A stretch of 41,836 bases of DNA from Methanomicrobia archaeon (lineage in GTDB: Archaea > Halobacteriota > Syntropharchaeia > Alkanophagales > Methanospirareceae), in contig JAFGKP010000065.1 of NCBI GenBank assembly GCA_016928455.1, forward strand, positions 1 to 41,836, given 5' to 3'. Below the pieces are notes generated by a model. The model was not told where the DNA came from. It saw only the letters and a program-made list of their open reading frames with translations, and did not search any database. Positions 7,274 through 26,741 of this stretch are shown in pieces. How positions within the stretch are numbered: the stretch's first letter is position 1; each line of letters starts with the position of its first letter. The position numbers and the translations under genes are program-made.

Positions 7274-7352
7274 TCACACCAAGTGTTGAAAGAGCCGCAA
7301 TGACAAATACTTTCCGCACGGTCGCCGTCATGTGCCCTGCCGTGGGTCTGGA

Positions 7353-8246: not shown

Positions 8247-8351
8247 CCGTGCGCCCGGCGCGTTGCGAGTGACTGATTGTACGATGCGCCGTTAAGTTAT
8301 ATATTACAGGAAAGAGAATGGTAATGTTTATCTTATTATTACCGTCAAGAA

Positions 8352-10417: not shown

Positions 10418-10448
10418 CACTACGAACAAAGCGAGCACAGAATGGCTT

Positions 10449-11606
10449 TTACTTCTTCGGGAGCGAGAAGTAGACGGCCGAGGATACTTCATCACCGTTT
10501 TCTGTCCAGATCTTACCGCCTAATTTATCTAGAATCTTCTTGCAGAGGCTCAAGCGCAGATTTGTGCCTTCATAATCATACGGGAACAAGTGCTTGGGCG
10601 CGGTGAACATACCGCTCAAATCCTTTTCGTCCTTTACACTACTGCTGCCGTTACTGAGAACGGAGAAGAGATAATCCCCCGCAAGCTCCTGTGTTTCAAT
10701 GGTGACGCGCGGTCGCGCGGTGAGGCTGAGTTTCAACCCGTTTTCAATGAGATTGATGAACAGTTCCTTTATCCAGACGCGCTGCGTGGAGATCACTGGT
10801 AACGCCCCTGCCAGGATTTCACCGCCCCGCACCTCGATGAGCGCTCCGAGATCACCGACGATCTCCTCCAGAAGCTCGTTCAGGTCAACCGTCTCCAACT
10901 CATGGAATCGACGCCCCACGCGGGTTAACATGAGCAGGTCTTCCGTCAACGTGACCGTTCGCTCTGTCGCCTTCTGGATGCTGACCAAATATTCACGGCC
11001 GACCTCATCGAATCGCTCGGCATACGTGCCCAAAAGGAGCACGGAATCTCCCAACTCCTGTGTTACACGTTCGAGCTCGCGCATATAGATCTCCAATTCG
11101 TCCTCCAGGCGTTTCCGACGCGTCAAAATCTTCCATTCGCGTATCGCTCGTTCCGCGCGCCAGGGCAGCTCGCGTAACTCCTCCGGGTTCTTCACTACGT
11201 AATCCAGGGCGCCCGATTTGATCGCGTGCACCGCCAGTTGCTCCGAGCCCACGCCCGTGATAATGATGAGCGGGAAGCTAACTTCTTCAGGACTCATCGC
11301 GCCCCGTGTCAGATCCAGACCGGTGCCATCGGGCAGGAGATAATCCGCGATAACGAGTGCAGGAGAATCAGACCGCTTCTCCAGCCAGGCAAAAGCAGCA
11401 TCGAGATCCAGAACGTGCTGCACCTCCCAGAGCGAGCCTACATCCTCGAACGCCCTGCTAATGAGCTCAGCATGTGAATCGTCATCCTCAACCAGCAAGA
11501 TCGTCTTTCGCGTCACACGCTTTTCCGCGTCCTTCGCATCAGTCACGACACCGCGCTTCCCCGAATTCTTACCTCTCGGGTCTCCGATCAGATACGCCAC
11601 GTTCAT
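10449..11606 (-). CDS. Response-regulator receiver domain fused to a degenerate HisKA/HATPase_c-like module
   Basis: REC domain: ILLVEDDDSHAELI...VIADYLLPDGTGLDL...IIITG. In the dimerisation region, ELGDSVLLLGTYAERF occupies the usual position of the SHDLxxPL H-box, so there is no His. The N-box NLIENGLK is kept, while the G1 box (SNGSS) and G2 box (GTNLRLSL) are degenerate. Confidence 0.7.
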   Translation of the reverse strand: MNVAYLIGDPRGKNSGKRGVVTDAKDAEKRVTRKTILLVEDDDSHAELISRAFEDVGSLWEVQHVLDLDAAFAWLEKRSDSPALVIADYLLPDGTGLDLTRGAMSPEEVSFPLIIITGVGSEQLAVHAIKSGALDYVVKNPEELRELPWRAERAIREWKILTRRKRLEDELEIYMRELERVTQELGDSVLLLGTYAERFDEVGREYLVSIQKATERTVTLTEDLLMLTRVGRRFHELETVDLNELLEEIVGDLGALIEVRGGEILAGALPVISTQRVWIKELFINLIENGLKLSLTARPRVTIETQELAGDYLFSVLSNGSSSVKDEKDLSGMFTAPKHLFPYDYEGTNLRLSLCKKILDKLGGKIWTENGDEVSSAVYFSLPKK

Positions 11607-11843
11607 CGCGACTCGACACCGCTCCCTGATGAATAAATGGCAGGTTTACATAAATACCTTTCGCATCACGTATTCTGATAATAGCCCATAAGCGGTCTCT
11701 AATTATCCTATAGGGGCTGTAAACGGTTATTTCAGCGGATTCGCAAGGGTACTGTGCATACTTCGACACACGCGAAACAAAAAAAAACGAAAAACTTTTA
11801 TAGTGGTAGACCAAGGAAATGTAAACGATAGTTCCTCTTAATC

Positions 11844-12632
11844 ATGCACAATCTGCTACGTCTCGCGGCCTGTTCCAATCTGCGCAGAAATCTCCTGCAC
11901 TCTTTGCAGGCGGGAGGGAAACCGCTGAGTGAATTCCGTGACGAACTCGGGGTGAGCTCGACTACGGCGATCCATGCGTTGAGGGATCTTGAACGGGCTA
12001 ATCTTATCCGCCAGGATGAGGCGCGGAACTACGCATTAACGAAAATTGGCGAGATCGTCGCCCTGAAATTGGATGATTTTAGTGAGGCTGTTGAAGCGCT
12101 TCAGAAGCACGAGCGATTCTGGCTGGAGCATGACCTCAGCGATATCCCCGACCCCTTACTCGAGAAGATCGGTAATCTCCGCAATTCGATGCCGCTTTTG
12201 GGCTCTACCACCGACCTCTTCAAATTGCACGCTACCTTTATCCAGGTGCTCGAGACCGCAAATGAGGTGAAGGGGATCTATCCCATCTTCGACCTCGACT
12301 ATCTCGCCACTATTCGGGACCTCGTGAAGCGGGGAATCGAGGTCGATCTCATCGTCACAACTGAGGTTTTGGAGAGCATAGGGGGGGTGCTTGAGACGGA
12401 AGAACTCTTCCATGACTTACTCGAAGAGCCGAACCTCACGCTCTTCGCCACCGAACAGCCGTTGAAGCTCACGCTCACCCTCACGGATCGTGTCTTTTAT
12501 CTCGGCTTATTCGCCCCTGATGGCCTTTATGATTTCAATCGCGCATTGATCAGTGACGATGCCAGAGCGCTCGGGTGGGGACGGGCATTACATGAGCATT
12601 ATCGGCAACGCTCCAAGCTGGTGACGGAATAA
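11844..12632 (+). CDS. Winged-helix transcriptional regulator with a FilR1/DUF1724 middle domain
   Basis: N-terminal wHTH (RRNLLHSLQAGGKPLSEFRDELGVSSTTAIHALRDLERANLIRQDE). This is followed by the pattern and length (about 260 aa) typical of methanogen DUF1724 regulators. Confidence 0.7.
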   Translation: MHNLLRLAACSNLRRNLLHSLQAGGKPLSEFRDELGVSSTTAIHALRDLERANLIRQDEARNYALTKIGEIVALKLDDFSEAVEALQKHERFWLEHDLSDIPDPLLEKIGNLRNSMPLLGSTTDLFKLHATFIQVLETANEVKGIYPIFDLDYLATIRDLVKRGIEVDLIVTTEVLESIGGVLETEELFHDLLEEPNLTLFATEQPLKLTLTLTDRVFYLGLFAPDGLYDFNRALISDDARALGWGRALHEHYRQRSKLVTE

Positions 12633-12673
12633 TGCCTGGTACTATGCTCGTTTGAGGATAATTGGCAATTTCT

Positions 12674-12685
12674 GGCAATATTGCC
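12674..12685. promoter_or_regulatory. Perfect 12-bp palindrome GGCAATATTGCC with an extra TGGCAAT half-site 10 nt upstream; candidate operator next to a TATA-like box
   Basis: Read directly. TGGCAAT occurs at 12663-12669 and 12673-12679. TTTTAAA lies at 12696-12702, GGAGGT at 12748-12753, and the ATG at 12761. Confidence 0.4.
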
Positions 12686-12760
12686 GGAACATAACTTTTA
12701 AAGCTCCTCTTCGGAAATATTCTATTCCCCATCCCTTATCCATATCCGGAGGTAGCGATT

Positions 12761-13399
12761 ATGAGCCCCGCGGTAACATTCTGGAGCAATAGCTATGCCA
12801 GCCTAGCTTCTACGCTCTTCATTATTGCTTCATTTGCCACGATTGGGTTTGGAGTAAAGTATATCGACGATGCCTTTGATGAAGACCGATTTAATAAGGC
12901 GGTTGCAAAAGTCTTTGCACCTCTGTTAGTCTTCCTCTGGATTAGCGTCTCTTTACTCGATTCTATCTCCGCAACCATCTTATTCGCGATACTCATTGCC
13001 GTGCTGCTTTCAGGGAAGGTTGATAATCGCATCTTCAAGCTCAGTGCCCTTACGCTGATTACCGTGGTCGTGCTTACGCAATACGAGCACTTCTCGTGGG
13101 TGCCGCTGGCCGTTCTCACCATTATGGGCGTTGCAGATGAGCGGGGGAACGATTATGTCGATGCGCATGAAACCGGTGGAATTCGGGAGTTCTTCTTTGC
13201 GCATCGCTGCGGTATGAAGGTGAGCACGTTGGGTCTCTGCATCGCATCCTTCCTCCCCTGGCTGTATTTCGCGGCGTTCCTTGCCTTCGATTCCGCGTAC
13301 GAATTCGTCAAATTCCTCGATTATCTCCACGTCTCCGCGATTGGCTATAAAGTGTGGCGATTGCCGCTGGCCGTGATCCTCCTGGGCAAATTCAAGTGA
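12761..13399 (+). CDS. Hypothetical polytopic membrane protein with two acidic loop motifs
   Basis: About 6 predicted TM helices. Acidic motifs YIDDAFDED (residues 34-42) and ADERGNDYVD. A good GGAGGT RBS lies 7 nt upstream. No family recognised. Confidence 0.6.
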   Translation: MSPAVTFWSNSYASLASTLFIIASFATIGFGVKYIDDAFDEDRFNKAVAKVFAPLLVFLWISVSLLDSISATILFAILIAVLLSGKVDNRIFKLSALTLITVVVLTQYEHFSWVPLAVLTIMGVADERGNDYVDAHETGGIREFFFAHRCGMKVSTLGLCIASFLPWLYFAAFLAFDSAYEFVKFLDYLHVSAIGYKVWRLPLAVILLGKFK

Positions 13400-13467
13400 T
13401 TCTGAGCCGTCATATGTGGCGCGTGCATACCGTGACCGGACTTCTCAGGCATATTATGCCATCTCCA

Positions 13468-16400
13468 TTAGTCTAAATGAAGAACGCGTTTGCTCGGCGT
13501 CCCCTGGTATAACTTTTCTATGTGCACGACGGTCTCCTTCTCACCGCCCGATAACATGAGGATATTCTCAAAATTCTTTTCCACCTCGTCCCGTCCCACT
13601 TTCTTCAGTAAATGGGAATGCGGATCAAGAACAATTACCGTTGTGCAGTTCCACCGTTTCAAGCCTTCAAGTTGATTTTGGAGGAGCCCATACGTCTCCT
13701 TAGGTTGGTAATATCTCGCAAAGTCGTCATATACATCAATAATAACGATTCGTGGATGATTTCTTGATTGGCTCTTGATCACCTTCACAAGGCTCCGCTG
13801 AAATAAAATTTTATTGAGGGGCACCAGCATATGATCCTCATACTCGATCAATTCTGAGATGCCCTTCTCTTCATAGAGCGGCTCATAGAGATCGAGCATG
13901 GTGAGGTTATCCACGGATTCAAGCTCCATGAGGAGCTCGCCCTGTATCTGCCGGTACGGGCGTTTCGAAGTAGCATAGATGATACTCGTCCCCTCGAGGA
14001 GGTTCCGTTTCATGAGCGCTTGTATCAGCTTCTGTTTTGCTTTCGTCTCTTCGGCGATGAGCAGCGTGCTACTCCCTTTCACCAGACCTCCGGCCATGAC
14101 CAGGTTAAGTTCTTTGATCCCGGTGGAAATAATATCAAAGACCTCGCTGGCCGCGAATGGGGCGTGAGTATCGGTCCTTATTTCTTCTTTCACCAACCCC
14201 CGGAGGAGACAGCGCTTGAACGGGAATTCATCACCGAGAGCCTCAAGATATAATTTGAAGAGTTTCAAAAACTCATCGCGCGAGAACCGTGTTGCCTCCC
14301 TGGTCCGCATCTCCCCCTTTTCAAACTCAAAACAGTTAAAGAGCGCCTCCCGCCGCTTCAAACGATCAAAAATATTCTGCTGCTCGCTTAGCGAAATGAA
14401 CGTCCTTAACTGCGCGAGGAGATTGTTAATCGTTCGCTCATAAAGAATCGGATAATACAGCCTATCAAGCTCGACACGTAACTCTTCGGGAAGCATCAAA
14501 ATTTTTTCACCTAAAAGCCTCACCAGTTCACTTTTAATCTCTTCGAGCGATTTCCTTTTGATCATTACCTTCTCCATGTCAGGCATTTTATGAAGAGCGA
14601 GGAGAATTGCCACCGCGACGGTCACCTGGGTCATCTCATCCACTGATTCGAGATGGAATTCCCGATTCTGGGAATCAAACCTCATCCGTTGGAGTTCATC
14701 ACCAGGAACATATCTCGCTATCGCCTCCTCCCAGAGCTGCTCGAGATAGTCTGTCCTCAGGAAGTTGTGCGCATGGAAATTGAGAAGGTGGATGATATTC
14801 TCTTTTTTAATTTTTTGAGATCTCGATTCCCCTGTTAGAGTCATGGTCGAGAGGATCTCAATCAGCAGAACGGCAAAATAACCGACGAAGACTAGGTTGT
14901 GGTAGGGATAATGATGAAGATAATTGCTTAACGAGGAATAGAGCATGTAGACGACGAGAAAAACGACAAAGGCGAAGATGTATGAGAGTTCGCTCCATAT
15001 GTTTTTTCCCAGAATCTCCTCAAATCCCTTGTGCGTGACACTCAAGTATGCTCCGAAAGCGATCAAAAAGAAAGCAATGAAGAAGAGGATGAGCGGATAA
15101 GAGATAAACTCGATACGGCCGAAATACGTGGCTCGTCCATAAGTTAAGAAAAGAGTAAAGAAAATGAGGGAGAATATAGAGCAGAAGAAGATTAGATAAA
15201 GCAAAACGTCTAGACGTTTGAAGATCGGCACTATCGCTTGGTCTCTGAGGATTGTGCGCAAATCAAGAGCAAAGGCGAGGTAAAAGGCGAACGAAAAAAG
15301 GCCGAAGAGAAGAGCGTATATCAAAACCTTAGACTCACTCGTTGGAGCAGCCCACAAATTGAAAATTACACAGAAGACGTAAAGAGATACTATTAAATGG
15401 AGTGAGAGACCCAGTTTCAGATAGCTCCAATAGCGCAATTTTGTGCGAAATGAAATAGCCTCGAGATAGGTGAAAATTAAGAGTGTGGCCACAAAAACAG
15501 GAAGCAAAAAAACAAGTGCGATAACAAATGGAAGATCTTTATAAATGGTAAATGAATAGCTTTTGGCAGTGAGGTAGAATGACGCTGCTAAAAGGGCAAG
15601 TGTCATTGCCATCGTGACTTTGGGAAGATCAAAAGGCAACAGAACTTTCCACTTGGGCTGGAGGATAGCAGGGTATTCAATTGCAAAAGTGAGATAATAG
15701 CTTAACGCGAGCGTCACAGGAATGAAAAAAGAGAGTATAAGATAATAGCTTAACTGAAGGTTGAGTTTGGAGAATAAAAGTAATGAACCAATGAAGAGCG
15801 AAACCGCACCTGAGCTTGACCATAAAAAAGGTTTACTAACAAAACCGATCTCCGAATAACTCTTCGATAAAAAGATAAAATCATAAAAGAATGCGAAGCT
15901 AACAAAGCAGAACAGAATTATAAATAAATAGAGAATTGAACTATTTTCAAAAATTGGAAAGTCGAGCACATAAATAGCACCTTTAAAGAAAAACCATATA
16001 AGCGGAATAAAAAATATAAAGAAGATAATTGGTCTCACTTTTATTGCTTTTTCCTTTCTTTTCAGCAGCGGTTTTATAAGCTGATATTCCCCCACATTGA
16101 CCATAAACACAGCATAGGTATATAAGAAAGCCACAATAAATGCAATAGTCGTCCCCAAAACGCTGAAGTATTTGGCAAGTATTAAGTGCAATGTAACAGC
16201 ATCAACAATTGTACAAATATTGCCTACATATATGTTATTCCAGACCGAGGAGACTGATACCTTCTTAACATCCTGGATTAACAGCAGGGCAACGTAAAGC
16301 AAGAATATATTTAATATAAGTGATGAAAATATGCTAACTTTGGGGTCATTAAACGCTAAACCAGCTGTAGCCCCGGGCGTTAAAGCACTGATAATAACGA

Positions 16401-16482
16401 AAAAGAAGAAGATGCACCATCCCCTTCGTTTTCCCACGTTAATCTTAGAAGCCCAGCAACGATGAGTCAACTGATTGGCCAT
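13468..16482 (-). CDS. 1004-aa polytopic membrane protein (about 16-20 TM helices) with a cytoplasmic helical linker and a C-terminal KaiC/RecA-like (DUF835-like) domain lacking Walker A
   Basis: Residues about 20-550 are almost entirely hydrophobic F/I/L/Y-rich helices. The C-terminal ISTGIKELNLVMAGGLVKGSSTLLIAEETKAKQKLI aligns with the KaiC pattern TGI..LD..LGGGL..GS..LI.G..GTGKT, but EETKAK replaces the P-loop. A Walker B-like RIVIIDVYDD is present. The gene is very AT-rich. Confidence 0.75.
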   Translation of the reverse strand: MANQLTHRCWASKINVGKRRGWCIFFFFVIISALTPGATAGLAFNDPKVSIFSSLILNIFLLYVALLLIQDVKKVSVSSVWNNIYVGNICTIVDAVTLHLILAKYFSVLGTTIAFIVAFLYTYAVFMVNVGEYQLIKPLLKRKEKAIKVRPIIFFIFFIPLIWFFFKGAIYVLDFPIFENSSILYLFIILFCFVSFAFFYDFIFLSKSYSEIGFVSKPFLWSSSGAVSLFIGSLLLFSKLNLQLSYYLILSFFIPVTLALSYYLTFAIEYPAILQPKWKVLLPFDLPKVTMAMTLALLAASFYLTAKSYSFTIYKDLPFVIALVFLLPVFVATLLIFTYLEAISFRTKLRYWSYLKLGLSLHLIVSLYVFCVIFNLWAAPTSESKVLIYALLFGLFSFAFYLAFALDLRTILRDQAIVPIFKRLDVLLYLIFFCSIFSLIFFTLFLTYGRATYFGRIEFISYPLILFFIAFFLIAFGAYLSVTHKGFEEILGKNIWSELSYIFAFVVFLVVYMLYSSLSNYLHHYPYHNLVFVGYFAVLLIEILSTMTLTGESRSQKIKKENIIHLLNFHAHNFLRTDYLEQLWEEAIARYVPGDELQRMRFDSQNREFHLESVDEMTQVTVAVAILLALHKMPDMEKVMIKRKSLEEIKSELVRLLGEKILMLPEELRVELDRLYYPILYERTINNLLAQLRTFISLSEQQNIFDRLKRREALFNCFEFEKGEMRTREATRFSRDEFLKLFKLYLEALGDEFPFKRCLLRGLVKEEIRTDTHAPFAASEVFDIISTGIKELNLVMAGGLVKGSSTLLIAEETKAKQKLIQALMKRNLLEGTSIIYATSKRPYRQIQGELLMELESVDNLTMLDLYEPLYEEKGISELIEYEDHMLVPLNKILFQRSLVKVIKSQSRNHPRIVIIDVYDDFARYYQPKETYGLLQNQLEGLKRWNCTTVIVLDPHSHLLKKVGRDEVEKNFENILMLSGGEKETVVHIEKLYQGTPSKRVLHLD

Positions 16483-16507
16483 GTGCCCCTCTTGCTTCGT
16501 GCTTACG

Positions 16508-16514
16508 TTATATA
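16508..16514 (-). promoter_or_regulatory. TATA-like box for the 1004-aa gene (leaderless-type spacing)
   Basis: The minus strand reads TATATAA 26-32 nt upstream of the ATG at 16482. Further TATA-like elements lie at 16526-16535 and 16543-16552. Confidence 0.3.
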
Positions 16515-16708
16515 GGCAAAGGGTTGTATATAGCCTTTTCGGTTTTTAAAGCACTTTCGAAACCACAGGGTTCCGCACAACACCCGGTCAGTATTCTGAA
16601 GATCTTTCAGAGCAAATATGGTGAACACAGCTCTTTATCCGCTTAGTGCTCAGCGCAACCATGATGAAGTTGACCTGCGAACCGAAGAGTGTCCAGAAAG
16701 AGGTGAGA

Positions 16709-17185
16709 TTAAAGAACTCCCGGTTCAAAAAGCGGTTTTGATTTCCATTCCTCGCAGGGCAGTCGGTTGATCACTGCCTCGAAGAGTGCAGCGGATTCTT
16801 TGTTCAACGCAGTGATAAATCCAATATCGTGGCTAGTTTCGAGACCTGATCAGATCGAGCGTGAAGAACGGATGGCCCCGCGATCTATGTTCCGTTCTTC
16901 GGCTTTGTCCCCGTACGCTCTGATCGCTCTTTCCACCATACTACGGGCAAACATGGAAGTCAACAGCGATATCAATGGGCTCTTTTGGCTATCGGTCACC
17001 GCAAGGAGCTCAGAATAGACCGCAGGATGAAACTTAGCACAGCATCGACCTCAATCGTAACGAACTACTTAATGGCCATATCTGCGAAAGCAATTCTGAT
17101 ATCGTGCTGCTTGCGCGTGAATCCCGCCACCACGCGTGTTAGGTTATAATCGAAAGATTCTTTGCATGGAATAGCGGGAAAAACA
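16709..17185 (-). pseudogene. Possible degraded gene remnant of host-like GC between the two low-GC gene blocks
   Basis: A minus-strand reading frame runs 112 codons with a single in-frame TGA (16850-16852): GRCCAKFHPAVYSELLAVTDSQKSPLISLLTSMFARSMVERAIRAYGDKAEERNIDRGAIRSSRSI-stop-SGLETSHDIGFITALNKESAALFEAVINRLPCEEWKSKPLFEPGVL. A further protein-like piece sits in another frame at 17068-17185. There is no start codon or RBS. The statistical support is only moderate. Confidence 0.25.
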
Positions 17186-17401
17186 TCAATACTCGATATG
17201 GATACAGTTCTCCGGACATATTTTCTCGCATTCCCTACACCCATCACACATATCTCGAAATACTGCTGCGATGTCATAGCCCTTTTTCGATTGATTCGTC
17301 CTCTTCGGTTTTAACATAAACACCTTAGCAGGGCAAACAAGGACGCATTTCATGCAGTTCTCGGGATGCATGCACTTATCAGGCTCAAGGAATATTCTCA
17401 T
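17186..17401 (-). CDS. Small 2x[4Fe-4S] ferredoxin
   Basis: 71 aa. First cluster motif CMHPENCMKCVLVCP (atypical Cx5CxxCxxxCP). Second motif CDGCRECEKICP (canonical). Confidence 0.85.
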   Translation of the reverse strand: MRIFLEPDKCMHPENCMKCVLVCPAKVFMLKPKRTNQSKKGYDIAAVFRDMCDGCRECEKICPENCIHIEY

Positions 17402-17444
17402 AATGTTACTTAAAATAATTTATATCTTCTATTATTTAGATAGT

Positions 17445-18302
17445 TTACCAGAATGCTTTAGCGGGGGTCAATTGGCGTTCAATTATCTGTATGGCATTGT
17501 TCGAACATCCACTCATGCATAAACCACATCCCGTGCACTTTCGTATGTCTACAAACGCCTTACCATGGTCAACATTGAACGAAACAGCGCCAAATTGACA
17601 ACGTGTCAAACAGGTTTTGCAGCCGCGGCACTTCTCTTGATTCACGCGTACAACATATTCCCCTTTTATCAGTGCATGTTGCAAACCCGATTCATATCTC
17701 CCCTTATATGCTACACAATAAGACGCTGTGCAATTACAGATACATGTTACGTACGGCACCCTACCCCAAAGAATAACATGATAAAGGCCTTCTTTATCCC
17801 AATCTCTTAATAATCGCTCAGCAGTTGTTAAGCTTACTTCTTCCATATATTCGTCCGGATTAGCCTTTTTATAAAGTTCAGGAATAAGGCCAAAATTAAG
17901 GCAGCAATACTTTTCTTCACCAGCCATTTGCCTGCAGAGACAGGGAAGAATAGTGGGATTCTCACAGAGTTTTAATACTTTTATAGCGTCTTCCAGAGGA
18001 ATTACTTGTCCACCTTGGGTTTCTTTTAGCACCCGTTCTCCTAAATTCTGTGCGATTTTTTTAACCACGGGCACTGTCTTCAGCGATTCTATCGTCCCAA
18101 AATCAGTTATTATAGATTTCTCAAACTCGATCTCGTCAGCAATTTTCTCTAAAATCTCCTTTCTTGCTTCACCCATCTCTTTGCTGTAATTCTTCGGGTT
18201 AAAATACCACGTGCTCTTCTGGCCGGCGTGCTTCTTACAAATTTCGCACATACTCTTTATTGAATCATGGTCTTTAAATAGCTCATGGGCACGAGATCGC
18301 AC
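17445..18302 (-). CDS. Cys-rich iron-sulfur protein with a C-terminal 2x[4Fe-4S] ferredoxin-type domain and an uncharacterised Cys-cluster N-domain
   Basis: C-terminus: CRGCKTCLTRC and CTGCGLCMSGC. N-domain: CEIC, LPCLC, YCC and CICNCTASYC. The track start is GTG 18302. The alternative ATG at 18251 (MCEICKK...) sits better behind a TATA-like AAAATAATTA (complement of 18317-18327). Confidence 0.7.
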   Translation of the reverse strand: MRSRAHELFKDHDSIKSMCEICKKHAGQKSTWYFNPKNYSKEMGEARKEILEKIADEIEFEKSIITDFGTIESLKTVPVVKKIAQNLGERVLKETQGGQVIPLEDAIKVLKLCENPTILPCLCRQMAGEEKYCCLNFGLIPELYKKANPDEYMEEVSLTTAERLLRDWDKEGLYHVILWGRVPYVTCICNCTASYCVAYKGRYESGLQHALIKGEYVVRVNQEKCRGCKTCLTRCQFGAVSFNVDHGKAFVDIRKCTGCGLCMSGCSNNAIQIIERQLTPAKAFW

Positions 18303-18336
18303 TGCAAGGTGAGTGAGTAATTATTTTGCCGTTAAT

Positions 18337-18370
18337 CTGCAGAGACGTTCTGACTTGCGAACGTCTGCGG
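18337..18370. other. Bulged 12-bp hairpin in the 200-nt intercistronic spacer of the low-GC operon
   Basis: Arms at 18337-18350 and 18359-18370 (CTGCagAGACGTTC / GAACGTCTGCGG), 8-nt loop, one G-U pair and a 2-nt bulge. Read directly. Confidence 0.5.
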
Positions 18371-18503
18371 AGTAAGAGGATGGCTTTCTCGCAATAAAAT
18401 GAACTGGTAGTATCTCGAACGAATCGGAGCTGGAGTATCGCTTAAACCCACCCTTCCGCAATAGCTGCGGTATCTGTAACGTTTGCTTACCCTTTTGTCC
18501 CGA

Positions 18504-19631
18504 TCACATATCTACAAAGCATAGTAAGTCGCCTATATCGATCTTACGTTGCAACATATTCAGTATTCCAATAATCAAATCAAGATCTTCATCGTTAAGA
18601 GTATTTAAAATTTTACGATATAGATAAGCTAAATCTTTCGTAAAGTGCTGTTTTATAAACTCATTGTAATTCTGCAATACTGACATATCGTGATTTTTTA
18701 TGGCATCAACAGAATATTTACTGGCACGGTATGAACTTACTATAGCAGGCATGACTCCATAACCCAAAAAGGGATCTATTAGACCTGCAGCATTGCCTAT
18801 AAGAAGTATATTTTTGTAAGTGTGTACATCCAAATCAAAAATTTCTTCACACCCTTGAAAGTTATTGGTAACGCGGTTGAGCCGCTTAGCAATTTCCTGA
18901 TTCTTATTGAGATAGTTATAAAAATAACTATGCGCTGAGTGGTCCATTTTACTAGAGTCCAATACAATCCCGGCCGACGAGAGTCCCTGTGGGCACGAGG
19001 CTATGTAAAAATAACCTCCCGGAGCTAAAGCGACATTGAAATAAATCTCAGAGGTATCTGGTTGAGCGAAATAGTTCCCCGTTACACCATATGCTACTCG
19101 ATTACTGACGAGCTTTTTCCTTATATAGCGGTGAAAGATAGAATTACTTCCATCCGCTGCGATAACTATTTTTGGATGTATCGCTATGGTCTTTTCGCCC
19201 TGTAACAAAATTATTTCCGACACCCCCTCACTATCTTCGCACAATTTTTCGATTTTTATCTGGCCAAAGAAGGTACAGCCGTTTACTACTGCTTTTTGGA
19301 CGGTTGAGCACTCAAATGAATCAGAATCAGGACCTCTCTTGACATAATACTCCCCTATGTCTGAATGCAACGTAAACGAATTGCCGAAAGCGGAATGCCA
19401 CTTTGAATTATGTACTAAGTTCTCAGTTCTCAGTTCAAGCTCATTTATTATCGAGGTTAGCCCTAAATCTGTGGATGAATCAACTCGTGTCGTTATATGT
19501 GCGCCTACTTTATCGTTTTTATCGATGAGTACAGTGTCCAATCCGTGTTTCGAGCAGTATAACGCTGCAACTGAGCCCGCGGGGCCAGCTCCCACTACCA
19601 ATACATCACATTCAATTTCCACTGCTACCAC
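18504..19631 (-). CDS. Diverged geranylgeranyl reductase-family FAD protein (paralog 2)
   Basis: CDVLVVGAGPAGSVAA FAD fingerprint, AADGSNS, and a C-terminal LLIGNAAGLIDPFLGYGVMPAI (GDAA changed to GNAA). No Cys at the position of the GGR PCG(G/E) motif. Confidence 0.75.
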   Translation of the reverse strand: MVAVEIECDVLVVGAGPAGSVAALYCSKHGLDTVLIDKNDKVGAHITTRVDSSTDLGLTSIINELELRTENLVHNSKWHSAFGNSFTLHSDIGEYYVKRGPDSDSFECSTVQKAVVNGCTFFGQIKIEKLCEDSEGVSEIILLQGEKTIAIHPKIVIAADGSNSIFHRYIRKKLVSNRVAYGVTGNYFAQPDTSEIYFNVALAPGGYFYIASCPQGLSSAGIVLDSSKMDHSAHSYFYNYLNKNQEIAKRLNRVTNNFQGCEEIFDLDVHTYKNILLIGNAAGLIDPFLGYGVMPAIVSSYRASKYSVDAIKNHDMSVLQNYNEFIKQHFTKDLAYLYRKILNTLNDEDLDLIIGILNMLQRKIDIGDLLCFVDM

Positions 19632-20701
19632 CCTACCTTGTTTGATAATTCGTACGCTTTGTATAAATTGAAATATTCAGGATAAAGCAAGATGGCTTTA
19701 ATATTTGAAAAAGCGTTAACACCTTTCCTGAATGGTGCCATATGTCTTGCTAATTCTTTATTATTCATACCTTTTAGCCGGTCAAAAGCGTGGAGAAATA
19801 ACGGAGATGCAAAGACGGATCTCTTCCATCTTTCTGCGTATGCTCGTGGATTATCTGTAAGTAGTGCTTCTGCTGCCATTCTCCCCGCGACCATACCCGG
19901 TCTAATTCCTCCCTTTGTCAGCGGATTGCTCTGACATGCTGCATCTCCAACGAGCAGAATGTTACCGTTAACAGTATTCTGTAAACCTCCGAAGGCAACC
20001 TTCCTCGCCTGCTTTGTTAGAATAGTACCTTCAAATGGTTCTCTGACGCGGTGCGTTCGGAACGGAAAACCAACCTTAGTCGTAGCTCCATGTGGAAATA
20101 TCCATTTATAGTCCCCATCCCAACATTCATCATACTCAAAGATGAGCGTATTGTGCTCTGGTTCTTTCTCCACCACATATTGGACAAGCGTTTTCACTCT
20201 CCCAGCAATCCCGAGCTTTTTACGGATGAACGAATTCGGGCCATCGGCGGCGATGAGATACCTCGTTGTTATAGATTCGCCAGTGGTCATCTTCACCTTA
20301 ATCTCGTCGTCTCGTTGAATAAAATCCTGTAGGGGTTCCTGAATAAACTTCCCGCCTAATCTAACAAAGCGGTCAATAATCCCATTCAAAAAGGTAGGTC
20401 TATCGATAATGTAACCATTCATCGTCATTTCCAGTTCTACCTTCTCAGGCCAATATTCACGTATTTTATCAATCTTCTCTATGATACAAGAAGGTTTAAT
20501 TGGTGCTATATCCTGGAACAACTCGCCACTTACCCCTTCTCCACACATAGTGTGATAGCGATCATAATGGTCATTATCAAGGCGTTCTAAGAGAATGATT
20601 TCATGGCTATTATTTTTATCCAATAATTTAGAGAAAAAAGCAGCAGAACATCCGGCCGGGCCTGCTCCAACGATAAGAACGTCACATTTCGTTTCGTGCA
20701 T
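19625..20701 (-). CDS. Geranylgeranyl reductase-family FAD-dependent oxidoreductase (paralog 1)
   Basis: CDVLIVGAGPAGCSAA, HTMCGEGVS (candidate catalytic Cys), AADGPNS, LLVGDAACQSNPLTKGGIRPGMVAG. Its 3' end overlaps paralog 2 by 7 nt. Confidence 0.8.
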   Translation of the reverse strand: MHETKCDVLIVGAGPAGCSAAFFSKLLDKNNSHEIILLERLDNDHYDRYHTMCGEGVSGELFQDIAPIKPSCIIEKIDKIREYWPEKVELEMTMNGYIIDRPTFLNGIIDRFVRLGGKFIQEPLQDFIQRDDEIKVKMTTGESITTRYLIAADGPNSFIRKKLGIAGRVKTLVQYVVEKEPEHNTLIFEYDECWDGDYKWIFPHGATTKVGFPFRTHRVREPFEGTILTKQARKVAFGGLQNTVNGNILLVGDAACQSNPLTKGGIRPGMVAGRMAAEALLTDNPRAYAERWKRSVFASPLFLHAFDRLKGMNNKELARHMAPFRKGVNAFSNIKAILLYPEYFNLYKAYELSNKVGW

Positions 20702-20720
20702 CCGTTGTAGTTTGTCGAGG

Positions 20721-20730
20721 AAATATAAAA
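20721..20730 (-). promoter_or_regulatory. TATA-like box of the low-GC reductase operon
   Basis: The minus strand reads TTTTATATTT about 20-30 nt upstream of the ATG at 20701, which is leaderless-type spacing. A second element, GATTTATATTAG, lies at 20738-20749. Confidence 0.35.
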
Positions 20731-20755
20731 GGATTTCTAATATAAATCACTCAGG

Positions 20756-20762
20756 AAAAAAA
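20756..20762 (-). terminator. T7 tract (minus strand), likely pheT terminator, coinciding with the GC-content break
   Basis: The minus strand reads GGAATTTTTTTCCTG about 200 nt downstream of the pheT stop. GC content drops sharply on its island side. Confidence 0.4.
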
Positions 20763-20965
20763 TTCCAATTTCGATGCGCGCTCTCAGAGTCGTTATTGCG
20801 AAACAAACAGTGCCAGGTGAATGGAGAAGTGCCATTTGCCTTAATCCTGAGTGCTGGTCTCGATGGCGGTATCAGCGATCTCAGTACTCAAAATTGACAG
20901 CCGTAGTAACAATGAAATCCCGCGTAACGCTATTACTTTTTTGGCAACATGCATCCAGAACGGAA

Positions 20966-22624
20966 TCAGATGTGCTTGCTTCGTTTCACGCCTCCGTTGG
21001 TGATATCCAGCTCAAGGCCCACGACAGGATGGTCGAGGCCGAAGTTGCTGATTACCTCCGGATGGAGCTCGCCAAAGACGCCGATACGCGTACCATTCTT
21101 GACGATATCCGCTCTACGGCCGTACTCGAAGAACGCGCCATCGCGCGAATTCGCGAGCTCAGCGTCGTCCAGGTTCAACTCCTTGAGCACGGCGTCCGCG
21201 ATCGATCTAACCTCCGCGAAGTTCGCGGTAGCGTGCGTGGCAAGAGCAGCAAGCATGAACTGCTCCTCAAAGTTACGGACGACCGGCCCGACCTCAAAGA
21301 TACGCTGCGGGAGGTCGCGATGCTTGTTAATCGCGAGTATCTCCAGCAAATTCGGGAGAATCGAGCAGCGAAGCATCGTGTGCTCGATACTAATCGGAGC
21401 GGCGACCGGGACGTTCTCGGACGCCCGCTCATCACGCCGCATCAGGGTAAACTGCTTCCGCTCGGAGGTCAGTGTGAAGGTAACCACCTCAAAGTAGCCC
21501 AGGCCGATCATCAAGCTCCGCACCGCAGCGTTCTTCGCCTCTATTGGATGCACCGCACCAATGGTGAGCGTAGCTGGCAGTTCAGGCGCAAGTTTATTGT
21601 ACCCGTACCCGATCGCGATGTCCTCAACGATGTCCCAGGGATGGAGGATATCATAGCGATACGCGGGGATGAGTACCTCAAGGAGATCAGTATTCTTGAC
21701 TGCTGCGCCAAGACCCATGCGCTCGCAGCACGCTATGCAGTCATCCGCGGTAAGGTTAAGTCCGATGAGCGCATTAGCCTCAGGTACCGAGACCTCCCTC
21801 CTCACGGGTTCTAAACAGGGCGTCACCCGCGTTCCGCGCTCATCGGGATACCGAATACCTACCGATTGGAGCTCGCCACCACGCTCAGCCAGCGCTGTTG
21901 CGATGATATTGAGTGCGATCAATACGTGATCGGTCAGGCCCGTCACATCAAGAAAGAGTTCCTCGGTCGTTTCGGTCACCCGGGTCAACTCGCCATTGAT
22001 AATAGGAGGGAAAGAGAGCACGTTCCCGTTAGCATCGAGTATCAACGGATACCGATCCTTACCCTCAAGGATATACCGATAACCGATCCCCTTCGGATGC
22101 CGCTCGAGGATCTCCGCCATTGTCATCTCCACATCGTAATCAAGCGGCACAAACGAGAAGCCCGGATCTGCCGCGAGGTAGGTAAACGGGGGCTTTACCC
22201 GGGACAAATCGTGCACACCGATCGAGACATTCTTACGATTACGACCCAGCCCGCGATGCAACTGCTCCTGTAGGAGCATCAGCGACTCGATGCTGCGGGA
22301 ATCAAAGTGCAAATTTCTTACCACGCCGCAGACAATAAACGGTCGCACCGCAAGGACCGAAGGGTCAACCGTCATCTCGATTCCTGACGAAGTAACGTCA
22401 TACTTCGCGAGGCCGGGTTCGAGCTCGAGGAATTGCCGAAGCGTACGAGCAACACCCTCCACGCTGAAGAGGTCAGGGCGGTTGGGGAAGAACTCGACGT
22501 CCATATACTCCGCCTCTATTCGCTCAACATCCGCGCAGAGCAGTGGCAGATGCTCCTCAATTCGCGCGATGCTCACGCCAGTGAGTGCTTCCAGATCATC
22601 ATAGTACAATCTAATGACCGGCAT
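20966..22624 (-). CDS. pheT: Phenylalanine--tRNA ligase beta subunit (archaeal type)
   Basis: 552 aa. The N-terminus MPVIRLYYDDLEALTG, the B3_4/B5-like middle and the class II-like C-terminal domain are typical of archaeal PheT. Confidence 0.9.
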   Translation of the reverse strand: MPVIRLYYDDLEALTGVSIARIEEHLPLLCADVERIEAEYMDVEFFPNRPDLFSVEGVARTLRQFLELEPGLAKYDVTSSGIEMTVDPSVLAVRPFIVCGVVRNLHFDSRSIESLMLLQEQLHRGLGRNRKNVSIGVHDLSRVKPPFTYLAADPGFSFVPLDYDVEMTMAEILERHPKGIGYRYILEGKDRYPLILDANGNVLSFPPIINGELTRVTETTEELFLDVTGLTDHVLIALNIIATALAERGGELQSVGIRYPDERGTRVTPCLEPVRREVSVPEANALIGLNLTADDCIACCERMGLGAAVKNTDLLEVLIPAYRYDILHPWDIVEDIAIGYGYNKLAPELPATLTIGAVHPIEAKNAAVRSLMIGLGYFEVVTFTLTSERKQFTLMRRDERASENVPVAAPISIEHTMLRCSILPNLLEILAINKHRDLPQRIFEVGPVVRNFEEQFMLAALATHATANFAEVRSIADAVLKELNLDDAELANSRDGAFFEYGRRADIVKNGTRIGVFGELHPEVISNFGLDHPVVGLELDITNGGVKRSKHI

Positions 22625-25130: not shown

Positions 25131-26741
25131 TCAGCAGAGCAGCGTCGCGATGACCGTGAGAAACACGGGCCCGCGTATATCAATCTTCCGGTTCGTTGAG
25201 GTTATGTATCGCGCAGCCACATCGTCAATCATGATATTGATGTCCGCGCCGCTCCGTACGATCTTCACATTTACCGTAATCGCTCCCTGCTGCGCCAGCT
25301 CACCATTCTGAGCGGATTCCTCGATCGTAGCGGCAGCGAGTGCCGCGAACGCGTCAAGAAATCGAATATTCGTGGGCACGCCCTCTTCGAACTGCTTCGC
25401 CCATTTCTCGGTCCTCGGGAGTCCCTGTACCGAACCAGCAAAGACGACGAGTTCGTTCTGCGTTGCAGGTCCGCAGAGCCTGGTGTTCTCCTCGGGCTCG
25501 ATCACCTTCACCGCAACCTGCTTACCGCAGAGGAGCCCATGGTACGCGAGGAACTCGCACGGTGATTCCACGCTCCCGTGGTCGTCACAGACCCGGATGA
25601 TGCTCTGCTCGATAGCCCGGCCTTCAGGCGTTTGCGGCGTCTTCTCCAGTTTGATAAGTTCCGCAAGCTCGAGATCGCTCAACACAAAGGGCGCGTGGAA
25701 TTGCGGGAAGACCAGAGCCCTTACGTCATCCGATTCATGCACGATCATTGCCAATCGCTCGACGCCAAGCCCGAGATTCATGACCGGATACGGAATATCA
25801 TACTGTGCCAGTGCGGTAGGCGAATAGATCCCGAAGGTAGCCAGCTCGACCCAGCCGAGTCGCGGATGGTGGCAGAAGACCTCCGTTTGCGTATCGGGCA
25901 TATAATACTTCGACCGCTTCTCATCCGGTCGGAATCGGATCTTGCGAAAGCCGAACTGCGAGAGCAGTCCGGTGGCCACTTCTTTGCCATCATCCAAGCT
26001 CACCGCGCCGTCTTCGTTGCTGAAGACGCAGGAGGCGGAATGGTAGCTTCGCAGCCGTATCTCATCTTCACGCTGCTCGCGGCGGAAGCAGCGATCCACG
26101 GAGAAGAGTCTGATCGGTAACGGCTTTTTATGCACGAGCTCTGCAAGCGTCAAGAACCAGCCGGAGGTCATGTGGCTCCGCAGGGTCGCGTTCGATGCGA
26201 CCGGAGCGATCTCTCGCAACTCGGGGAAAACGGTATCCAGTACCTTCGTCACCTGCATGTCCTCAACGCTCAAGCTCTGCGCTAATTCGTACACGAGATC
26301 ATCGCCACCGAGTTCACCACGCTTATACCGGTGCAAAGTCTCACGAAGCTCACTGATCTCCGCCGTGAGCTCCTTCTCAAACTGAACATTCATCTGCTGT
26401 ATGCGCTCATCGGAGATGCCGATGTCCGGCCGCGGCAGTCCGGCGAGATAGTAGCAGCGATCTAGAACGGCCAGTGCTTCCTTGCCGAATTGCCGCTTCA
26501 CGTCGTCCGCCTCGATGATCACCGGATTGATCATCTCCTCGAATCCGAGCCGCAGATAAGCAGCACGCAGCGCCTGGATGGTCTCGAGCACCGGATGGGG
26601 CTTGCCCCATCGCATCTGTCGTAACGAACGCGGATAGCATTCGTTCACGCGTCGCTCGCTCGCGTACTGTACGCCGCGACTCCAAGCGCCTTCAAAATCC
26701 GCGCTCGTTTCCGCCCGGATCTCTTCAGGATCAAATTTCAT
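25131..26741 (-). CDS. sepS: O-phosphoserine--tRNA(Cys) ligase (SepRS)
   Basis: 536 aa. GKPHPVLETIQALRAAYLRLGFEEMINPVIIE and FSVDRCFRREQ (class II motif 2) closely match my memory of the Methanocaldococcus SepRS N-terminal core. Confidence 0.88.
   Translation of the reverse strand: MKFDPEEIRAETSADFEGAWSRGVQYASERRVNECYPRSLRQMRWGKPHPVLETIQALRAAYLRLGFEEMINPVIIEADDVKRQFGKEALAVLDRCYYLAGLPRPDIGISDERIQQMNVQFEKELTAEISELRETLHRYKRGELGGDDLVYELAQSLSVEDMQVTKVLDTVFPELREIAPVASNATLRSHMTSGWFLTLAELVHKKPLPIRLFSVDRCFRREQREDEIRLRSYHSASCVFSNEDGAVSLDDGKEVATGLLSQFGFRKIRFRPDEKRSKYYMPDTQTEVFCHHPRLGWVELATFGIYSPTALAQYDIPYPVMNLGLGVERLAMIVHESDDVRALVFPQFHAPFVLSDLELAELIKLEKTPQTPEGRAIEQSIIRVCDDHGSVESPCEFLAYHGLLCGKQVAVKVIEPEENTRLCGPATQNELVVFAGSVQGLPRTEKWAKQFEEGVPTNIRFLDAFAALAAATIEESAQNGELAQQGAITVNVKIVRSGADINIMIDDVAARYITSTNRKIDIRGPVFLTVIATLLC

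Follow-up and report, generated by a model that had tools for sequence, protein, structure and literature searches.

Divergent geranylgeranyl reductase-type flavoproteins, an iron-sulfur protein pair and two membrane protein families at an apparently exchangeable locus of ANME-1-type archaea

Among the described systems closest to the locus examined here is that of Methanosarcina acetivorans, whose geranylgeranyl reductase (GGR; MA_1484) requires the adjacent ferredoxin (MA_1485) and is encoded next to the tetraether synthase Tes (MA_1486) (PMC8941075). GGR paralogs with locus-encoded ferredoxins group together, the multiplicity of GGR paralogs in archaea is a recognized open problem, and residue Cys47 is essential in the GGR of Sulfolobus acidocaldarius (PMC10821996). 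Membranes of ANME-1 (group 1 of the anaerobic methanotrophic archaea) are dominated by glycerol dialkyl glycerol tetraethers (GDGTs) (PMC6581649), and unsaturated GDGTs can be formed either when partly unsaturated archaeol is coupled or by the radical S-adenosylmethionine (SAM) desaturase Ted, homologs of which occur in ANME (bioRxiv 10.1101/2025.10.20.683597). In this study, we analyzed a stretch of 41,836 nucleotides (hereafter the window) from a Methanomicrobia archaeon of the family Methanospirareceae (assembly GCA_016928455.1, contig JAFGKP010000065.1). A first-pass annotation had described in it a low-GC operon of two GGR-like flavoprotein genes, a Cys-rich iron-sulfur (Fe-S) protein gene and a ferredoxin gene, and the M. 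acetivorans precedent that it mentioned is real.

Reading of the open reading frames (ORFs) reproduced the four co-directional minus-strand genes at the proposed positions, with a 7-nt overlap between the two flavoprotein genes. The first of these, GGR_A (19625–20701, 358 aa), was assigned from its ORF, GGR-family profile score and motifs, and the second, GGR_B (18504–19631, 375 aa), from its ORF, profile score and alignment to the GGR structure 3OZ2. They are followed by the gene of the Cys-rich Fe-S protein (17445–18251) and that of a 71-aa 2x[4Fe-4S] ferredoxin (Fd; 17186–17401), the latter recognized by its ORF, Pfam matches, adjacency and gene fusions. The low GC content was confirmed as well, GC at third codon positions (GC3) being 0.38–0.51 in the cluster genes and 0.61–0.72 in every flanking gene. 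The low-GC unit extends past position 17186 into a further minus-strand gene (13468–16482), whose 1004-aa product, here named Big1004, was predicted by an AlphaFold model and Foldseek to join transmembrane (TM) helices to a KaiC-like domain. Convergent with it lies the plus-strand gene of unk212 (12761–13399), a small polytopic membrane protein of 212 aa identified by linkage and invariant motifs, and the recurrent next neighbor of unk212 is a FilR1/HVO_A0261-type transcription regulator (11844–12632, plus strand), whose link to the locus is weaker than that of the other parts. We suggest that these genes may form a modular, membrane-anchored isoprenoid reductase system with dedicated Fe-S electron input, of which the four genes noticed first are the imported part; this tentative proposal, the one we favor, falls a little short of an even chance in our judgment. 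Its hosts would be ANME-1-type archaea (Methanophagales, Methanospirareceae and relatives) and Hydrothermarchaeota, and its parts one to three GGRs of four types, an optional unit of Cys-rich protein and Fd, Big1004, unk212 and usually a FilR1-type regulator.

First, the flavoproteins were compared with described GGRs. Both matched TIGR02032, the model of the GGR family (arCOG00570), in line with the GGR fingerprint ascribed to them at first, but at 131.7 bits (A) and 105.8 bits (B) they remained below the curated cut-off of 158.8. The equivalog models of the housekeeping digeranylgeranylglycerophospholipid (DGGGPL) reductase (NF041080, NF041160 and NF041385) have cut-offs of 580–780 bits; against them A scored 61.8, 42.1 and 27.8 bits and B 66.4, 103.6 and 27.4 bits, respectively, and no other GGR was present within the 41.8-kb window. 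The profile scores support the view that A and B are divergent members of the GGR family, and neither is recognizable as a housekeeping DGGGPL reductase. The FAD-binding GxGxxG is present in both proteins (VGAGPAG in each). In A, MCGEG aligned to the CGEG of the Thermoplasma acidophilum GGR (3OZ2), DYKWIFP matched the cavity motif YxWxFP, and LVGDAA..GGI was complete. In the window copy of B, GGYFYIAS replaces YxWxFP, the other two motifs read LIGNAA and GYGV, and RIDSSPDF stands without an equivalent of Cys47. These motifs had been read correctly, except that GNAA proved to be lineage-specific, occurring only in the window and in a relative at 87% identity (L118; loci of our census are given as L numbers), whereas the other type-B orthologs have GDAA. 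Absence of the Cys47 equivalent is a property of the whole type-B clade, which shares the motif R-I/V-D-S-S-P/T-D-F/L. The description of B as the diverged member holds for the Cys and the cavity motif but not for the protein as a whole, which is nearer to the solved GGR (94 bits to 3OZ2 over its full length, compared with 30 bits for A); the C-terminal ~80 aa of A are unlike canonical GGR.

Related loci contained four types of GGR, and GGR was the best family match for all of them. Type A (MCGEG at the Cys47 position, cavity motif DYKWxFP, FAD motif GDAA, TIGR02032 score ~132) has orthologs at 64–86% identity in L007, L008, L081, L083, L090, L118 and L120. Type B (RIDSSPDF without Cys, GGYFYIV, GDAA in most members, 106–120 bits) forms a clade at least 42% identical internally and ~26% identical to canonical reductases, and is limited to ANME-1, Methanospirareceae and Hydrothermarchaeota. 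Type C (VQCAEA, YGYIFP, GDAA in most) reached 169–178 bits and passes the cut-off, while type D has KSS without Cys, YAWVFP and GDSA (GDAA in L001) and scored 146 bits.

Second, the Cys-rich protein and Fd were found to belong together. The ORF of the Cys-rich gene reaches a GTG at 18302, which gave the 285 aa originally reported; its homologs are 266–268 aa long and all begin with MCxxC, so the true start is the ATG at 18251 (268 aa). The C-terminal 2x[4Fe-4S] domain with eight Cys was recognized correctly (Fer4 35.6 bits, cut-off 21.1; Fer4_10 31.8 bits, cut-off 25.5), as was the novelty of the N-terminal part, but some of the additional Cys are not conserved, namely the first Cys of YCC and the first Cys of CICNC. 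The invariant residues of the N-terminal part (C2, C5, H8, C104, C106, C117, C172, C174 and C179) would be enough to ligate further metal centers. Residues 1–160 had no relative in Pfam, NCBIfam, a PDB profile search or a Foldseek search with the predicted model. A fold assignment for the N-terminal domain was also attempted and dropped, Foldseek and PDB profiles having matched the ferredoxin-type region only.

A homolog search with the Cys-rich protein returned ~60 clusters, of which the named ones belonged to ANME-1, Syntropharchaeia and Alkanophagales, together with two Bacillota at 30% identity. A profile search of 1.84 billion representatives extended the family to 138 clusters (50% identity level) at E <= 1e-30, nearly all 260–295 aa long and of the same architecture, in agreement with the first impression that the protein fits no characterized family. 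In a genome scan, relatives at 52–73% identity were found in Methanophagales and Hydrothermarchaeota, while others, at ~30%, came from Asgard archaea, Bathyarchaeia and anaerobic bacteria, two of the latter being the cultured Desulfofundulus australicus and Desulfovirgula thermocuniculi. The small Fd (Fer4_7 36.9 bits, cut-off 27; Fer4_6 36.9 bits, cut-off 25) combines the atypical first motif Cx5CxxCxxxCP, noted before and indeed conserved in its relatives, with a canonical second motif CxxCxxCxxxCP. All close relatives have its gene immediately behind the Cys-rich gene, as do 28 of 31 distant loci that were examined. Moreover, four members of the Cys-rich family are natural fusions of 352–400 aa, extended at the C terminus by an additional dicluster domain; the window Fd aligned end to end, including Cx5CxxCxxxCP, with the C-terminal extension of both fusions that were aligned (P0139 and P0165). 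Judged by this conservation, the Cys-rich protein and Fd can be regarded as one functional unit, and because of the fusions they are predicted to form a physical complex. The idea of a dedicated ferredoxin thus survives in altered form: Fd is a dedicated partner, but primarily of the Cys-rich protein, and the pair recurs and fuses without GGRs in Asgard archaea and bacteria. Since its neighbors in distant lineages are heterogeneous (a DPD/PreA-like oxidoreductase, an acyl-CoA synthetase, an Fe-alcohol dehydrogenase and a ~190-aa protein without a family), we consider the pair a portable redox module rather than a GGR-specific one. The Cys-rich family with a fused or adjacent ferredoxin appears to be undescribed.

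Some features of these distant loci recurred. In the Asgard loci L019–L040 (for example, L030 8104–11079), which represent Hermod-, Prometh-, Odin- and Thorarchaeota, a ~405-aa DPD/PreA-like oxidoreductase precedes the pair; the co-directional upstream genes encode this protein, which has its own Fer4 domain, and a ~145-aa ferritin/rubrerythrin-like protein. Four bacterial loci (L018, L021, L029 and L034, from Desulfofundulus, Desulfovirgula and others) have a conserved protein of ~155–200 aa after the pair (for example, L029 11102–11674), for which no family match was found. AMP-dependent acyl-CoA synthetases were located near the pair in three bacterial loci.

Third, the linkage of all components was analyzed in ~60 related loci, from a metagenome scan anchored on Big1004 together with the loci found earlier. 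Big1004 is directly preceded by the Fe-S pair or by a type-C GGR in 35 of 36 informative loci, and by both in L001 only; it follows the pair of Cys-rich protein and Fd in every close relative possessing that pair. At least one GGR lies directly upstream of the Fe-S pair in nine of the ten loci with enough upstream DNA, and the order from GGR to Fd seen in the window recurs in L007, L008, L009, L012, L081, L090 and L118. Linkage of the genes in related genomes, an expectation of the first-pass annotation, was therefore observed, whereas its picture of a closed four-component system was too narrow, Big1004 and unk212 being conserved partners that lie outside the four-gene segment. The composition of the locus varied. 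With both the Fe-S pair and Big1004 we found A and B (window, L118 and L081), A and D (L007 and L090), A alone (L008), B alone (L009 and L012, from Hydrothermarchaeota), C and D (L001) or no GGR at all (L003). Loci with Big1004 and without the Fe-S pair contained B and C (six loci, including ANME-1 GoMg4 with C5S30_02215 and C5S30_02225), A and C (L083 and L120) or C alone (several loci), and L109 has Big1004 and unk212 without any GGR. The Big1004 tree did not separate cleanly by partner type, and such a split was discarded: Fe-S-type and C-type loci were interleaved in a neighbor-joining tree, which carries no support values.

The window was then compared with L077 and L079, two close relatives of its host. 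All three share the order of the flanking genes: one flank encodes SepRS, MgtE and PheT, and the opposite flank unk212, FilR1, a response-regulator kinase, peptidase A24, GvpD/KaiC, Trm5 and an amidohydrolase; flank identity is mostly 80–93% at the protein level (71% for MgtE and 76% for unk212 of L077) and 81–89% at the nucleotide level. In L077 and L079 the interval from PheT to unk212 contains a radical SAM gene of class B, a GGR of type C and a homolog of Big1004 at 46–53% identity; in the window this interval holds A and B, the Fe-S pair and the window's own Big1004. The low-GC cassette at ~15113–20998 shares no nucleotide homology with the syntenic L079 and L077; it comprises the 5' part of Big1004 and the genes of Fd, the Cys-rich protein, GGR_B and GGR_A, and its breakpoint lies inside Big1004. 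Residues 47–250 of Big1004 are 23% identical to both L077 and L079, 50% to L081 and 45% to L008; residues 781–1004 are 87% identical to L077 and 55%, 55% and 56% to L079, L081 and L008, respectively. GC3 within the gene rises from 0.36–0.43 in codons 1–400 to 0.53–0.67 thereafter, that is, identity and GC3 switch together. Because the domain identities and the GC3 switch agree, we conclude that the window Big1004 is a recombinant, in which codons ~1 to 400/455 were imported with the cassette and the remaining linker and KaiC-like domain are resident. This comparison of aligned loci shows that the low-GC segment of ~15.1–21.0 kb was acquired horizontally and that two forms of the cassette occupy what appears to be the same functional slot. 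It also shows the predicted membrane part of Big1004 to be matched to the reductase/Fe-S set, and the KaiC-like domain to stay with unk212 and FilR1. Turnover of the locus appears to be general, because the GC content of the cluster is below that of its flanks in most other hosts (0.42 versus 0.55–0.58 in L003 and 0.45 versus 0.56 in L077; also in L008, L081, L012 and L109). The low values could stem either from recurrent acquisition from donors of low GC content or from a selective preference for AT-rich codons.

The radical SAM genes of the class-B (B12-binding) type adjoin the cassette in L077 (7075–8472), L079 (~7000–8424) and L003 (6618–7925), co-directionally upstream of GGR-C in L077 and L079 and divergently in L003. 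Identity between them is just 25%, and the models that they matched best were generic ones (BchE, HpnJ and lipid B12-dependent radical SAM), all far below the cut-offs; an identity as Tes was rejected, all matches being to generic class-B models. Radical SAM enzymes with B12 are known archaeal lipid modifiers, and these neighbors may be relevant to a lipid role.

The two membrane proteins are the most constant parts of the locus. The Big1004 family comprises ~66 clusters and was found only in ANME-1, Methanospirareceae and Hydrothermarchaeales. An AlphaFold model (pLDDT 76) predicted ~16 TM helices (residues ~22–547), a helical linker (560–780) and an alpha/beta domain of KaiC/RecA fold (781–1004). 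Charge distribution supported a topology with both termini inside, under which the most conserved motifs (LQPKWKxLxPFD and THKGFEE..KN) fall in cytoplasmic loops. Foldseek matched the alpha/beta domain only, to 2W0M, 2DR3 and KaiC CI at target-normalized TM scores of 0.53–0.59, and the KaiC profile PF06745 was matched by all 31 family members examined (best E 3.6e-14), the window protein itself scoring 19.8 bits, below the cut-off of 26.6. Throughout the family the Walker A motif GxxxxGK[ST] is replaced by the consensus GSSTLLIAEETKxKQK, without a glycine-rich loop. A Walker-B-like VIIDVYDD is retained with an invariant D916 and aligns with IIIIDSWDA of the window GvpD/KaiC protein; in comparison with a bona fide KaiC sequence, only this stretch of the C-terminal domain aligned. 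Weak recurrent Pfam matches of the domain were KaiC, PAXNEB, MEDS and DUF835, the last three of which are non-catalytic RecA-fold domains. For the membrane domain, neither Foldseek against PDB, a profile search of PDB sequences nor Pfam returned a fold or family relative. A transporter-like internal repeat was also looked for and dismissed, hhalign of halves and quarters giving probabilities below 1%.

The gene of unk212 lies directly downstream of Big1004 in ~35 loci, including the GGR-less L109. Its product has the invariant motifs K-Y-I-DD-A-F-DE, G-K-x-DN, DE-x-G-x-x-Y, H-R-x-x-M-K and FLAFD; it matched no Pfam or NCBIfam family, and a profile search of PDB sequences found nothing at E <= 10. 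Asp-rich motifs are typical of Mg2+-dependent isoprenoid-diphosphate enzymes, and the resemblance of the unk212 motifs to Asp-rich isoprenoid enzymes (UbiA-type and others) is a lead, not membership. In L003 (GCA_015665585.1), the Big1004 homolog is followed downstream by two unk212 genes in tandem (12205–12780 and 13295–13870), each sharing ~57% identity with that of the window.

If these genes form a membrane-anchored reductase module, Fd and the Cys-rich protein would supply the FAD of both reductases, GGR-A and GGR-B, with low-potential electrons. GGR-A has the complete catalytic motif set, and the Cys-less GGR-B would probably differ in substrate or regiospecificity. Working on the cytoplasmic side of a Big1004–unk212 pair that makes, holds or presents the substrate, both would hydrogenate C=C bonds in the isoprenoid chain of a membrane lipid; candidates are archaeol or GDGT intermediates and polyprenyl or quinone side chains. 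At the same locus of the sister genomes, a canonical-like type-C GGR would fill this role without dedicated Fe-S proteins, and because A and B stand at the exact site of that GGR, they may be the main lipid saturase of the genome. A role at the tetraether level is an attractive possibility, and in the literature searched no enzyme dedicated to saturating tetraethers was described. The sequences show which genes are present, how their families are related, how often they are linked, the fusions, the replacement of the cassette in situ and the chimeric Big1004; the direction of electron flow, the substrate, the physical docking and any catalytic roles of Big1004 and unk212 are what we infer. Several observations weigh against this proposal. 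The components are known here from genes and predicted models, and the prenyl-reductase activity itself has to be inferred, since A and B score below the curated GGR cut-off. The membrane domain of Big1004 has neither a detectable relative nor an obvious catalytic residue set, and the RecA-like domain of the protein is similar to pseudo-ATPases with sensory or regulatory functions (MEDS, DUF835 and PAXNEB), which would fit regulation as well as catalysis. Model quality for the Cys-rich protein is low (AlphaFold pLDDT 67), and in Asgard archaea and bacteria the Fe-S pair accompanies unrelated enzymes (DPD/PreA-like proteins, acyl-CoA synthetases and Fe-alcohol dehydrogenases). Finally, the membrane pair can exist without locus-encoded reductases, as L003 and L109 have no GGR.

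A bolder form of the proposal, which we regard as possible but rather unlikely, is that Big1004 and unk212 constitute an unrecognized integral-membrane machine for isoprenoid lipids, in which interchangeable reductase and electron cassettes are swapped by intragenic recombination under the control of the KaiC-like pseudo-ATPase. Unsaturated chains that span the membrane or are otherwise out of reach could, for example, be presented there for saturation or further processing in GDGT-dominated ANME-1-type archaea.

The main rival, unlikely in our estimate, is a regulatory one: Big1004, unk212, a stand-alone KaiC and FilR1 would make up a signaling module that senses the state of the membrane and controls the reductases, taking no part in the chemistry. 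Such a role agrees with the C-terminal domain of Big1004, which has a KaiC/RecA fold without a P-loop and the weak MEDS, DUF835 and PAXNEB matches, and with its remaining on the unk212/FilR1 side when cassettes were exchanged. In addition, a stand-alone KaiC ATPase of ~240 aa with an intact P-loop (GTxGxMK[ST]) is encoded divergently upstream of the GGR genes in eight loci (L009, L084, L090, L107, L109, L120, L121 and L123) and is a possible active partner for the P-loop-less domain of Big1004; many loci have a FilR1-type regulator next after unk212, and two-component genes often lie nearby. However, no stand-alone KaiC lies beside the cassette in the window, where PheT occupies its position. 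The invariant acidic and basic residues of unk212 (DDxxDE, DN, DE and HR..K) are more like an active site than a sensor, and co-transfer of the N-terminal membrane segment of Big1004 with the reductases suggests direct physical or functional matching over generic sensing. Coordinates of the stand-alone KaiC genes include L120 6924–7643, L121 5044–5751, L123 5235–5963 and L109 5958–6722. The block beyond unk212 in the window (8352–12632), which encodes a GvpD/KaiC-type ATPase, a prepilin peptidase A24, a response-regulator/HATPase hybrid and the FilR1-type regulator, is also kept in L003, L070, L077 and L079.

Another reading gives the reductases a quinone substrate: the polyprenyl chain that they saturate would be that of menaquinone or of some other electron carrier in the membrane, and Big1004 and unk212 would handle the quinone. 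Archaeoglobi are the classic archaea with saturated menaquinone, and no Big1004 homolog was returned from them. Use of menaquinone is predicted for ANME-1, whose genomes encode the futalosine pathway and an Fqo complex (PMC9012536), action of GGR paralogs on menaquinone is documented (PMC10821996), and MenJ is among the weak NCBIfam matches of the flavoproteins; yet the MenJ-model scores are very low (37–65 bits against a cut-off of 700). In the window-like locus L122 (= L081), MqnA and two CofH-type radical SAM genes lie 6–9 kb away, but this is the only locus with Mqn genes near the cassette, and overall we find the quinone reading distinctly unlikely. On the contig of that locus (Ga0307379_10002239, 18850–21699), the MqnA-type gene (PF02621) stands between the two CofH_C radical SAM genes, downstream of a cassette with A, B, the Fe-S pair and Big1004. 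Remnants of IS1-type transposases were seen near L122 and L120.

The first-pass annotation itself had suggested a heterodimer, with GGR-A as catalytic subunit and GGR-B as its non-catalytic partner, in a closed system with the Fe-S protein and Fd. The overlap of the two genes, by which A and B would be translationally coupled, and the absence from B of YxWxFP and of the Cys essential in S. acidocaldarius GGR speak for such a pairing, and A and B do occur together in the window, L118, L081 and L083. They are nevertheless not an obligate pair: A occurs without B in L007, L008, L090 and L120, accompanied by D or alone, and B without A in L092, L106, L111 and L082, accompanied by C, or as the sole GGR beside the Fe-S pair in the two Hydrothermarchaeota loci. 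Furthermore, the type-B clade is well conserved and has its own invariant motif and mostly a normal GDAA, which suggests that B is an active enzyme. The modular combinations and the conserved B clade therefore argue against a catalytic subunit with a degenerate partner, and with Big1004 and unk212 as constant partners the system is not closed either; we consider the heterodimer very unlikely.

It is equally doubtful, in our view, that the compound reduced by the GGR-like proteins and the Fe-S pair is not an isoprenoid but a different hydrophobic or coenzyme A-linked one, so that the likeness of these proteins to GGR would reflect only a shared flavoprotein fold. Halogenases, hydroxylases and FixC share that fold, A and B lie below the GGR-family cut-off, and in other phyla the Fe-S pair is found with acyl-CoA synthetases, an alcohol dehydrogenase and a DPD-like oxidoreductase. 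On the other hand, all four types match GGR best and type C passes the cut-off, A retains the GGR-specific Cys and YxWxFP, and the constant partners are integral membrane proteins, of which unk212 has a DDxxD(E) like that of isoprenoid enzymes. Mere hitch-hiking, in which the genes would be neighbors only through a flexible low-GC island exchanged as a block, agrees with the low cluster GC in most hosts, the in-situ replacement between close relatives and the transposase remnants near two loci, but is scarcely credible given that the linkage holds over class-level distances (ANME-1 to Hydrothermarchaeota) in rearranged sets of the same families, that the Fe-S proteins occur as gene fusions and that no component matches a defense system. 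A defense island had been considered separately and was rejected, a PADLOC-DB scan of Big1004, unk212, the Cys-rich protein, Fd, GGR_A and GGR_B having produced no matches.

With respect to expression, a single TATA-like box had been proposed for the whole cluster, whereas three genes proved to be preceded by putative TATA-like boxes ~25–30 nt upstream, an assignment at the level of pattern only. On the minus strand, TTTTATATTT (20721–20730) lies ~25 nt upstream of the GGR_A ATG, TATTTAAAGA (18271–18280) ~25 nt upstream of the Cys-rich gene ATG at 18251, and two boxes, GGCTATATAC and CCTATATAAC, with a Shine-Dalgarno-like GAGGGG (16507–16534) precede Big1004. Because the spacers upstream of the Cys-rich gene ATG (252 nt) and between Fd and Big1004 (703 nt) contain such boxes, two or three transcription units are likely. 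A scan for sigma-70 promoters and intrinsic terminators, which is unsuited to archaea, returned counts at chance level. In comparison with the 87%-identical relative L118, the spacer between Fd and Big1004 has an extra ~465 nt (16583–17125), whose GC content of 0.48 is above that of the cassette; this insertion has no ORF, no direct, inverted or terminal repeats, and no copy elsewhere in the window or the loci. An RNA gene or mobile element in the 703-nt spacer was considered and rejected, as there were no repeats and Rfam gave a sub-threshold chance match elsewhere. A perfect 8-bp inverted repeat, AGACGTTC / GAACGTCT, with an 8-nt loop (18343–18366) is situated in the spacer from GGR_B to the Cys-rich gene, ~90 nt upstream of the ATG at 18251, and could be a regulator site or a transcript-end hairpin. 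Further away, the flanks encode SepRS (25131–26741) and a full-length HypF hydrogenase-maturation protein (28809–31061). SepRS, an O-phosphoseryl-tRNA synthetase, marks a route to Cys-tRNA that typifies methanogen-related archaea, and HypF is notable for an ANME-1-related genome.

Most archaeal GGR paralogs have no known substrate or electron donor, and the locus bears on that problem. The new Fe-S family with its fused or adjacent ferredoxin would be a portable electron-input module across archaea and bacteria. The two membrane families have no consistent genomic partners other than GGR-type reductases, which points to an undescribed lipid or quinone step in ANME-1; these archaea cannot be cultivated in isolation, and their lipids serve as biomarkers. 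There is, in our opinion, a substantial chance that the Big1004–unk212 pair represents something new in archaeal lipid biology. The alternative cassettes at the same site in close relatives amount to a natural experiment on functional interchangeability, and they offer a clear case of intragenic recombination yielding a chimeric membrane protein. If it is true that A, B and the Fe-S pair functionally replace GGR-C, two solutions to electron supply would exist for the same lipid saturation task. Nothing pertinent was found in a full-text literature search on GGR in combination with ANME-1 or KaiC; the Big1004 and unk212 families, their near-constant linkage to GGRs and the exchangeable cassette with an intragenic breakpoint appear to be undescribed.

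Compared with known systems, the window resembles MA_1484/MA_1485 in placing a GGR-family reductase gene beside a small ferredoxin gene in a lipid neighborhood, a likeness that rests on adjacency. As MA_1484 lies next to Tes, so B12-type radical SAM genes adjoin the sister loci here, though these are of generic class B and not demonstrably Tes. In contrast with M. acetivorans, the window Fd is tied to a larger Cys-rich Fe-S protein, up to three GGRs of four types occur per locus, and the constant partners are two uncharacterized membrane proteins. With the GGRs 3OZ2 and 3ATQ, the flavoproteins share the fold and the FAD motif, A keeping the catalytic Cys, YxWxFP and LxGD and B aligning over its full length with 3OZ2; they differ in the C-terminal region of A, in the missing Cys and cavity motif of B and in scores below the family and equivalog cut-offs. 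The prenyl reductase of Archaeoglobus fulgidus and MenJ are GGR paralogs that act on a non-phospholipid isoprenoid, and the window lineage is a predicted menaquinone user, but similarity to the MenJ model is very weak here. No Fe-S or membrane-protein partners of these menaquinone prenyl reductases are known. FixC/FixX likewise combine a flavoprotein of GGR fold with a small ferredoxin-like protein, whereas no genes for an electron transfer flavoprotein (FixAB) were found in the window and FixC-model scores were 31–40 bits against a cut-off of 610 (PRK10157 31.3 bits). The C-terminal domain of Big1004 has its fold in common with archaeal KaiC-like ATPases (ArlH and stand-alone KaiC) and with MEDS, DUF835 and PAXNEB/Elp4; unlike in KaiC ATPases, its P-loop is replaced by AEETKxKQK and the domain is fused to a 16-TM domain without a known relative. 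Finally, the locus recalls flexible genomic islands with envelope-cassette exchange, in which alternative, compositionally deviant cassettes also lie between the same flanking genes, but its content is lipid-type reductases and Fe-S proteins rather than glycosylation or defense genes, and its intragenic breakpoint has produced a chimeric protein.

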